NCBI GenBank assembly: GCA_000004695.1
Contig: CM000151.3
Span: forward strand, 5,152,001 to 5,216,000
Direction: 5' to 3'
Length of the DNA: 64,000 nt
From: Dictyostelium discoideum
Taxonomy: Eukaryota
In this document: positions 23,281-25,251 of the stretch, one piece after another
Position numbering within the stretch: position 1 is the stretch's first letter
How the letters are laid out: every line of letters begins with the position of its first letter
The notes under the pieces: generated by a model
Seen by the model: only the letters and a program-made list of their open reading frames with translations
The model's database searches: none
What the model was told of the DNA's origin: nothing
Made by a program: the position numbers and the translations under genes

Positions 23281-25251
23281 ATGGTAGACCAAGATAAAAT
23301 AAAGCCAAAGCAACAGCAAAATAATTTTTCAAATAATAATAATAATAATGATAGTACACAATTAAATAATAATAATAATAATAATAATAATGACAAAAAA
23401 AAGCAAAATATTTCAAATAATAATAATAATAATAATAATAATAGTACACAATTAAATAATAATAATAATAATAATAATAATAATAATAATAATAATAATA
23501 ATAATAATAATAATAATAAAAAACAAAATACTATAAATAATAATAAAATAAATTCAAAACAAACACCTATAAATACAACCAATACAAATACTACAAATAC
23601 TACAAATACAACTACAAATACAACTACAACAAATATCCCAACAAATACAAATACCACAACAAATACAAACACCGCAACAAATACAACAAATACAACAAAT
23701 AATACAACAAATACCACAACAAATACAAATGCACCAACAAACACAACAACAAATAAAATAAATAATACTACAACGGCAAATAGTATAGAAAAACCTATAA
23801 TTACAAATGGTACTTTAAATAATAATATGAATTTTAGAAATGCTAATAATAAAATTAATATAAATGAAACAAATAATATTAAAAATAATAATAATAATAA
23901 TAATAATAATAATAATAATAATAATAATAATAATAATAATAATAATAATAATAATAATAATAATAATAATAATAATATAGATAAAGTTTTAAATAGTAGT
24001 CAAGAAGATGATAGTTATAATACAACAATAGATATGAGCTCTTTTGAAAAAAGTTCAACAGATATAAATGGTATTAATTATTCAAACTACAACAATTACT
24101 ATAACGGTTACAGTTATGCTGTAACAAATAATAGTTTTTCCTATGTCAACAGTGGTAGTAATACCACTGATAATCGTATAATCAACAGTAGTTATAATCT
24201 TCATTATCAACAACCACAACAAATACATTATCAACCTATACAGCATCACCATTATCAACAACATCAACAAAAATATTATTCACAACCTACTTATACACAT
24301 CCACAATTATTACAGCAGCAGCAACAACAACAACAACAGCAACAACCTCAACAACAACCATTACATCCACCACAATACCAAAAACAATATCAACAACAAA
24401 TACATATACAACAACAACAACAACAACAACAACAACAACAACAACAACAACAACAACAACAACAACAACAACAAATATATATACAACATCAACACCAACA
24501 CCAACCACAACAACAACCACAACAACAACCACAACAACAACAACATTCTCCAAAACAAACATCTCCAAAATCAAAATCACAACAAACACCAACAGCATTA
24601 ATATCAACACCAACACCAACATCAAAACCAATCTCAACAAAAATAGAAAAACCGGAAAAACAACAAGAGAAAAAACAAGAAAAATCGGAAAAACAAGAAA
24701 AAGAACAAGAACAACAATCATCACTCCTACAACAACAACCACAAGAAAATAAAACAAACTTTGAAAATGTTAATAATTTAATTTTAAATAGTAATGAACC
24801 AATCTCAAGTTTTGTTGCTTCAGATATGACCGAGTTAACAGAGGAATCAATAAATTCGATTTCATGTGTCTCATTTGGTAATTTTACAGTCGAACATTGG
24901 AAAGCCGTAACAATCTCTCCTTTGGTATTTTTACCCGATGAATTTTATATATATCCAATTAAAAATAATAATAATACAACAATCACAACCACCACTACAA
25001 ATAATACAAAATCAAACTCACCAACAAAAAATAAAGATAATTATATAATACCCCATAATAATAATAATAATACTGGAAACTTTGAATACCTATTGTGGAA
25101 AAAGAACGTCTTCAAAATAACTATTTATTCCACACAACAGCAAACCACAGTAAAAGTAACACCACAACCACCTTCAAACCTTCTATCTCTTTCACCACCA
25201 CCACCACCACCACCACCACCAATACTACCGCCACAACAAACAATATTATAG
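23281..25251 (+). CDS. very long N/Q/T/P-rich low-complexity ORF; possibly the 5' part of the downstream USP gene
   Basis: 656-codon ORF starting ATGGTAGACCAAGAT, with (AAT)n, (ACA/ACT)n and (CAA)n runs. It ends in SPPPPPPPPPILPPQQTIL*. It overlaps, in the +2 frame, the start of the ORF at 25095..26381 (see finding). Confidence 0.4.
   Translation: MVDQDKIKPKQQQNNFSNNNNNNDSTQLNNNNNNNNNDKKKQNISNNNNNNNNNSTQLNNNNNNNNNNNNNNNNNNNNNKKQNTINNNKINSKQTPINTTNTNTTNTTNTTTNTTTTNIPTNTNTTTNTNTATNTTNTTNNTTNTTTNTNAPTNTTTNKINNTTTANSIEKPIITNGTLNNNMNFRNANNKININETNNIKNNNNNNNNNNNNNNNNNNNNNNNNNNNNNNNIDKVLNSSQEDDSYNTTIDMSSFEKSSTDINGINYSNYNNYYNGYSYAVTNNSFSYVNSGSNTTDNRIINSSYNLHYQQPQQIHYQPIQHHHYQQHQQKYYSQPTYTHPQLLQQQQQQQQQQQPQQQPLHPPQYQKQYQQQIHIQQQQQQQQQQQQQQQQQQQQQQIYIQHQHQHQPQQQPQQQPQQQQHSPKQTSPKSKSQQTPTALISTPTPTSKPISTKIEKPEKQQEKKQEKSEKQEKEQEQQSSLLQQQPQENKTNFENVNNLILNSNEPISSFVASDMTELTEESINSISCVSFGNFTVEHWKAVTISPLVFLPDEFYIYPIKNNNNTTITTTTTNNTKSNSPTKNKDNYIIPHNNNNNTGNFEYLLWKKNVFKITIYSTQQQTTVKVTPQPPSNLLSLSPPPPPPPPPILPPQQTIL

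Follow-up and report, generated by a model that had tools for sequence, protein, structure and literature searches.

The overlapping reading frames of Dictyostelium ubpB are probably a single gene divided by a low-quality stretch of the AX4 reference

We examined 64,000 nucleotides of Dictyostelium discoideum DNA (GenBank assembly GCA_000004695.1, contig CM000151.3, positions 5,152,001 to 5,216,000 of the forward strand), hereafter the window, in which two long open reading frames (ORFs) overlap on the same strand at the 5′ side of the gene ubpB. Its product, UbpB, is a deubiquitinase of development that reportedly controls how stable MEKKalpha is. Very probably, the two frames belong to one ubpB gene, cut in two where the AX4 reference is of low quality over a short stretch, and their overlap is a sequencing artefact. 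The widely used UbpB model of 451 aa is probably truncated at its N-terminus, without some 953 residues.

The first ORF (ORF1, 656 codons, frame A) and the frame of the USP domain (frame B) are located in Table 1. Both are present as originally predicted, and overlap by 157 nt when counted from 25095 or by 166 nt when counted from 25086. Frame B indeed stands at +2, or equivalently −1, relative to frame A: 25095 − 23281 = 1814, which is 2 mod 3. The sign proposed for the shift was wrong, however: joining A to B takes −1/+2 and not +1/−2, so that the window is either one base short or two bases long. The stop that closes ORF1, probably a false one, lies at 25249-25251.

We followed the coding signal with a codon log-odds model trained on 17 other ORFs within the window. 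For frame A, frame B and the third frame, respectively, it gives +75, −164 and −86 bits over 24745-25085; −34, +20 and −46 bits over 25252-25371; and −175, +120 and −155 bits over 25511-26136. There is a genuine frame discontinuity inside continuous coding-like DNA. Over 25252-26136, the ~885 nt upstream of the annotated Met, frame B amounts to about +140 bits. Codon usage places the shift point ambiguously, depending on whether a triplet run in the overlap is read as CCA (Pro) or ACC (Thr). In frame B, the sole in-frame ATG over 25086-26145 is at 26139 (MKNIEEMPSK), the internal Met that had been foreseen near 26140; some 1050 nt are open without any other start.

Three long ORFs run antisense to the N/Q/T-repeat coding region (25121-25987, 24287-24757 and 23271-23744, all on the minus strand); they measure 156-288 aa and abound in V, L, F and C. 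They are artefacts of a composition poor in T and in stops, and should not be read as genes.

A second D. discoideum assembly, GCA_054883475.1, was reached through an exact-product match of a neighbouring lectin gene. In the window, a neighbouring ORF is exactly DDB_G0275019; with this ORF and UbpB both carried exactly, the window corresponds to AX4 chromosome 2 or to DNA that cannot be told apart from it. On contig JBTAPE010000033.1 (4.89 Mb), the corresponding locus, L002, is annotated with a single gene of four exons and 1404 aa over the equivalent of 23281-27801 (L002:3460-7978). There, one frame begins at the same ATG and reaches the first USP exon without a stop, over 1033 codons (L002:3460-6512). 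Splicing L002 with three GT-AG introns yields exactly 1404 aa, the annotated length, in which the Met of UbpB is residue 954.

Compared base by base across 21 kb, the window and L002 are 99.5% identical. Fourteen of the 20 substitutions between them are nonetheless confined to a 139-nt cluster at 25054-25192, the place of the ORF overlap, the other 6 being scattered over the remaining ~21 kb. Outside the cluster we see only these 6 substitutions and length changes of homopolymers and microsatellites. Of the 6 single-base indels of the cluster, five add a base to L002 and one removes a base, which makes +4 nt on balance; the window exon is shorter by 4, which is 1 mod 3. With the L002 changes one frame is continuous and the other two contain stops. 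The L002 version of the divergent stretch includes ACGGAAACTTTTGAAATACCTATTGTAGAAAAAGAACCGTCTTCAAAAATACC, and, so corrected, the stretch would encode peptides such as IPIVEKEPSSK or IPISPTQQQPTVNSNATTTSQPSTSSTTT.

The original prediction had offered, as one of its explanations, a frameshift or sequencing error in a proline-rich run. A CCA/ACC run does lie where it was placed (25193-25222) and this explanation comes closest to the evidence, but the lesion precedes the run, ending one base short of its (ACC)9 core, and in the continuous frame the run reads poly-Thr, not poly-Pro.

Two smaller differences also fall in ubpB. L002 lacks one AAT unit relative to the window at 25371-25373. At 24188 the window has G and L002 has A (RIINSSYN against RIINNSYN), the only coding difference in the gene outside the cluster; it may reflect genuine strain variation or a further error of the reference. 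Elsewhere, all the long A/T homopolymers that differ between the assemblies are shorter in GCA_054883475.1, and all lie in non-coding DNA (Table 1): one assembly or the other is systematically biased in the length of these runs.

Which of the two versions carries the errors can be judged from their coding properties. Across the divergent stretch, L002 scores +25 bits in frame and −32 and −68 bits in the other two frames, which contain stops, while the window version scores +5.5, −35 and −42 bits. The L002 version has a normal coding signature, better than that of the window. We also simulated errors by placing 14 substitutions and 6 indels at random in either version. With the window as the true sequence, 5.5% of trials yield a single open frame by chance (12% when the indels keep their observed signs); with L002 as the true sequence, 95.5% of trials break the ORF. 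The resulting likelihood ratio is about 17.

The make-up of the cluster points the same way. Shortening of long homopolymers is a long-read signature; the poor-quality end of a Sanger read typically gives substitutions, base-order swaps and dropped bases. It is this second kind of difference that makes up the cluster, where bases are substituted, locally swapped in order (GCAAACCAC against GCAACCAAC) or absent from the window, unlike the A/T-run shortenings elsewhere. We infer that the window, rather than the second assembly, carries the errors.

The reverse, namely that a polishing or consensus error in the second assembly created the continuous frame, with the reference right and two genes as annotated, appears unlikely. 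L002 is not error-free, given its systematically shortened A/T runs, and its annotation is automatic. Against this, only about 5% of simulations with random errors end in a clean single frame, the coding signature is the better one in L002, and its substitutions and extra bases do not resemble its shortenings. Two genes would also leave unexplained why frame B codes strongly over ~885 nt that hold no ATG, with AT-rich intergenic DNA lacking.

There is likewise only a slight chance that the window is correct and that AX4 carries a real mutation cluster splitting the gene; the catalytic part, if made, would then start from Met 26139, and a 656-aa fragment with an FGNF motif would be made separately. 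The annotated AX4 model does begin at 26139, the assemblies may stem from different strains, and 6 further substitutions exist outside the cluster in 21 kb. Yet 20 point changes in 139 nt, against 6 substitutions in ~21 kb, is not a spontaneous pattern, and as a real mutation cluster between near-identical genomes it is implausible. No paralogous donor for gene conversion was found in the window or in L002, where the only matches are to AAT repeats. Frame B, moreover, is fully coding without a start codon for ~1050 nt.

The 2025 de novo D. discoideum assemblies from Nanopore and Illumina reads, AX2-214 among them, report a coverage of 8x for AX4 against 62-139x for the new genomes (PMC12745789). 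GCA_054883475.1 presumably belongs to that project (PRJNA1300491), and is perhaps AX2-214.

Window-version stretches (24448, 24451 and 24826 to 25251) were not matched by exact look-up among short-read Logan contigs, a result that is uninformative as the sensitivity of the look-up is unknown. Another ORF of the window, of 256 aa (18512-19282, minus strand), is found exactly on contigs of ~950-970 nt from four public sequencing runs, SRR26869267, SRR26869257, SRR28564543 and SRR28564542 (loci L004-L007), so D. discoideum read sets are present in that collection.

Could the frames be joined after transcription? We examined all GT..AG pairs of up to 400 nt that would connect A to B. They are 64-80% AT with poor donors (GTGGAA, GTAAAA), whereas the introns of ubpB are 85-91% AT and start with GTATGT or GTAAGT; the earlier statement that the overlap holds no convincing intron is borne out. 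A cryptic or non-canonical intron that removes the frame break is therefore very improbable: several pairs could in principle do so, but candidates such as 25095-25150 (56 nt) and 25150-25526 (377 nt) fail on AT content and 5′ sites, and the second assembly is annotated with uninterrupted exon at this place. The notion of one large USP10-like gene with a cryptic intron thus keeps its first half, the single gene, as in the 1404-aa model; the intron is neither needed nor plausible.

We give equally little credit to a correct sequence whose frames are fused by programmed −1 ribosomal frameshifting or transcriptional slippage. Two long same-strand ORFs in a 0/−1 configuration would suit it, and a weak G_AAA_AAG occurs at 25098-25104. 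It is the only such element: frame A contains no canonical X_XXY_YYZ slippery heptamer over 25080-25251. Downstream, the 126 nt of 25105-25230 have a minimum free energy of 0 kcal/mol (z = +0.6), so no fold supports a −1 site, and the frame overlap itself is absent from the second assembly, which has a single continuous frame.

More generally, it seems improbable that AX4 is truly frame-broken, making either a full-length enzyme by non-canonical −1 recoding or two pieces, a 656-aa FGNF scaffold and a 451-aa catalytic domain begun ~1 kb into an ATG-less frame.

Two independent genes, with USP translation starting at the internal Met, had also been put forward, and the current AX4 annotation takes this form. 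It is opposed by the coding signal upstream of this Met, by the 1404-aa model and by the lack of an AT-rich spacer: 25252-26136 is 74% AT and its longest A/T run is 7 nt, while flanking intergenic DNA is ~90% AT with runs of 20-41 nt. The downstream frame offers no ATG before 26139.

A further argument comes from Acytostelium subglobosum. The alignment of its orthologue (P0002) with the window gene continues upstream past the annotated Met for 12 residues (KKKQDLEKKIIWM against KLRKEIDRKLAWM), which counts against the two-gene model. The locus itself (DF837574.1, L001:8385-9998) cannot settle gene continuity: immediately before the orthologue the assembly has a gap (L001:9770-9998), on account of which the orthologue is annotated as partial. 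A 413-codon same-strand ORF rich in S, P, A and T enters this gap. It begins near MGAESFFARYGPIN, which by its sequence may be a decayed form, FxxY, of the FGxF motif described below; the upstream ORF suggests the same architecture with a long N-terminus.

The structure of the proposed single ubpB gene is given in Table 1, together with the other features of the locus. Our splicing reconstruction reproduces UbpB exactly, with 100% identity between its 451 aa and the product of the window gene.

Table 1 Features of the ubpB locus, in window coordinates.
Feature	Position	Strand	Remarks
ORF1, 656 aa, frame A	23281..25251	+	From the open-reading-frame listing
Frame B (USP frame)	25086..26332	+	Follows TGA 25083-25085; first listed start GTG 25095
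Overlap of both open frames	25086..25251	+	60% AT, the least AT-rich segment of the region
Difference cluster	25054..25192	.	14 substitutions and 6 single-base indels vs L002; 139 nt, from base-by-base comparison over 21 kb
(ACC)9 run	25194..25220	+	Same in both assemblies; Thr9 in the continuous frame, (CCA)9 Pro9 only in broken frame A
FGNF motif, context SISCVSFGNFTVEHWKAV	24874..24885	+	In the only non-repetitive island of ORF1; candidate counterpart of USP10 FG(D/E)F
Exon 1 of the single ubpB gene	23281..26332	+	Broken in the window into frames A and B; L002 counterpart is one open frame
Annotated UbpB start ATG	26139..26141	+	O96612 / XP_643807.1, 451 aa; residue 954 of the full-length product
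USP Cys box GLINTSNTCFMNVILQSL	26196..26249	+	Catalytic Cys codon 26220-26222
Intron 1, GTATGT...AG	26333..26415	+	89% AT
Exon 2	26416..26885	+	Spliced product is P0001
Intron 2, GTAAGT...AG	26886..27008	+	85% AT
Exon 3	27009..27121	+	
Intron 3, GTATGT...AG	27122..27222	+	91% AT
Exon 4	27223..27801	+	His box GHYTCDIY 27664-27687; stop codon 27799-27801
A/T-run length differences	27165-27167, 27800-27808, 29357-29367, 31308-31318, 33362-33370, 33595-33598, 39407-39410, 39663-39665, 40454-40456		

The USP domain matches the Pfam family UCH (PF00443) over profile positions 1-254 of 254, with E = 1.1e-46 and 160 bits (cut-off 23.9). With both the Cys and the His box present, UbpB is by its sequence a predicted cysteine protease of the USP family. 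Catalytic domains of USPs in the PDB match it down to E = 3e-28; USP2 comes on top, and no USP10 catalytic domain was matched in the PDB. As for the USP10/Ubp3 type, the name 'putative ubiquitin carboxyl-terminal hydrolase 3' (Smittium) appears among the more distant matches (E = 1.7e-34), the closer ones being unnamed or hypothetical proteins of similar architecture. UbpB also contains the USP10-type motifs WEVVGKKGKTA and ISQIFSG..RS....SKES.T.EPF..L.LDI.

Independent support for ORF1 belonging to the USP gene comes from an FGxF motif, present both in ORF1 and in the N-termini of USP10-like homologues. ORF1 has a non-repetitive island, EESINSISCVSFGNFTVEHWKAVTISPLVFLPDEF, in which the motif reads FGNF. 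Across all open frames of the window (19.7k residues), the pattern FG[DNSR][FY] occurs twice, and its extended form, FGxF..[DE], only at this FGNF..E. Among the homologues, the 601-aa protein P0027 (complete on a 1954-nt contig) has LSLSFGSFKIDELK at residues 14-27, with SFGSF. An oomycete homologue (P0014) has ITFGDFSVEE near its N-terminus, that of Creolimax (P0006) has FGSY and FGRF in a similar place, and that of Conidiobolus (P0015) has ISFGDFSS ~120 residues in, after a low-complexity leader.

Human USP10 docks on the NTF2-like domain of G3BP through FG(D/E)F, its residues 10-13, and variants with Ser and Glu at the third position are known (PMC4450067). At the sequence level the FGNF of ORF1 matches this N-terminal motif of the USP10/Ubp3 type, with Asn at position 3 as a putative variant. 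By analogy, it probably docks a partner of the G3BP/Bre5 type, whose gene lies outside the window.

Some observations weigh against the single gene and have to be set beside these. BLASTP comparisons of the ORF1 C-terminus with P0027 and with the A. subglobosum upstream ORF were not significant, so that the resemblance in FGxF holds at the level of the motif; a similarity of the same regions noticed by eye finds no support in BLASTP. The continuous frame comes from one independent assembly, and its version of the divergent stretch includes a few codons seldom used in Dictyostelium (ACG, CCG, TCC, GCC).

Database searches with the non-repetitive part of ORF1 found no match among 5.8 billion proteins (word-indexed search) and, among 1.84 billion representatives (HMMER), one chance match only, to a repeat protein with FQNFTIKHW. 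No annotated homologue or copy of that stretch was found in those collections. Exact-product look-ups for P0001, the 656-aa ORF and the 104-aa lectin described below returned no match either.

We now propose how a single ubpB gene may have come to appear as two. The stretch 25054-25192 of the 8x Sanger-era AX4 reference of chromosome 2 would contain miscalled and missing bases. Their net deficit of 4 nt (1 mod 3) would leave the exon as two ORFs, one of 656 codons with a false stop and another, lacking a start, in the −1 frame. Annotators would then have picked the first ATG of the second ORF, at 26139, and so obtained a 451-aa 'UbpB'.

The full product would be a USP10/Ubp3-like deubiquitinase of ~1404 aa, encoded by four exons. 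It would consist of ~530 N/Q/T-rich residues, the short non-repetitive FGNF island, ~400 low-complexity residues and the C-terminal USP catalytic domain, which would thus end a mostly disordered region of ~950 residues. The question raised earlier, whether the USP carries a disordered N-terminus of roughly 1000 aa, would then be answered yes: ~953 residues precede the annotated Met. N/Q/T repeats such as those of the first 530 residues are common in Dictyostelium proteins.

Nothing here is new biology, and the corrected 1404-aa model is already in public annotation. If our explanation is true, however, the UbpB models in UniProt, RefSeq and dictyBase-derived records lack two thirds of the protein, including the only conserved element of its N-terminus, FGxF. 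It would then be necessary to revisit studies that used the 451-aa ORF, and also designs for knock-in or tagging at what was taken for the N-terminus. Overlapping same-strand ORFs of the AX4 reference should be compared with newer assemblies before recoding is proposed.

The DNA of the window is 70-90% AT and contains repeats of the types (AAT)n, (CAA)n and (ACA)n. At 22740-22865, in AT-rich intergenic DNA upstream of the ubpB start, ~42 units of AAT follow one another without a mismatch; long AAT repeats are thus not limited to coding DNA here.

Two genes with a legume lectin domain lie nearby: DDB_G0275151 (104 aa, 28306-28620, minus strand) and DDB_G0275019 (307 aa, 29844-30767, plus strand). 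The pair forms an inverted duplication of ~590 nt with 92% identity, between 28133-28716 (minus strand) and 30100-30688 (plus strand). DDB_G0275151, the shorter copy, looks like a truncated paralogue.

Compared with the −1 frameshifting sites of retroviral gag-pol and bacterial dnaX, the ubpB overlap resembles them in having two long same-strand ORFs in a 0/−1 arrangement. It differs in having neither a slippery heptamer nor a downstream structure, and it disappears in a second assembly of the same species.

The annotated UbpB (O96612, XP_643807.1) is identical to the C-terminal 451 residues of the gene described here (26139-27801) and has the same three introns. It differs in starting at the first ATG past the frame break, where the full gene most likely has a further 953 N-terminal residues, the FGNF island included. 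The 1404-aa model at JBTAPE010000033.1 shares the locus, start codon, introns and stop of the window gene; it differs by the cluster, by Ser/Asn at 24188 and by the AAT unit at 25371-25373.

With the family of human USP10 and yeast Ubp3, UbpB has in common a C-terminal USP domain, a long disordered N-terminal region and an FGxF motif. The position of this motif sets it apart from human USP10, in which it lies within the first 20 residues: in UbpB it is FGNF, ~530 residues from the N-terminus and behind N/Q/T repeats. The Conidiobolus homologue likewise carries its motif behind a low-complexity leader, as UbpB does.

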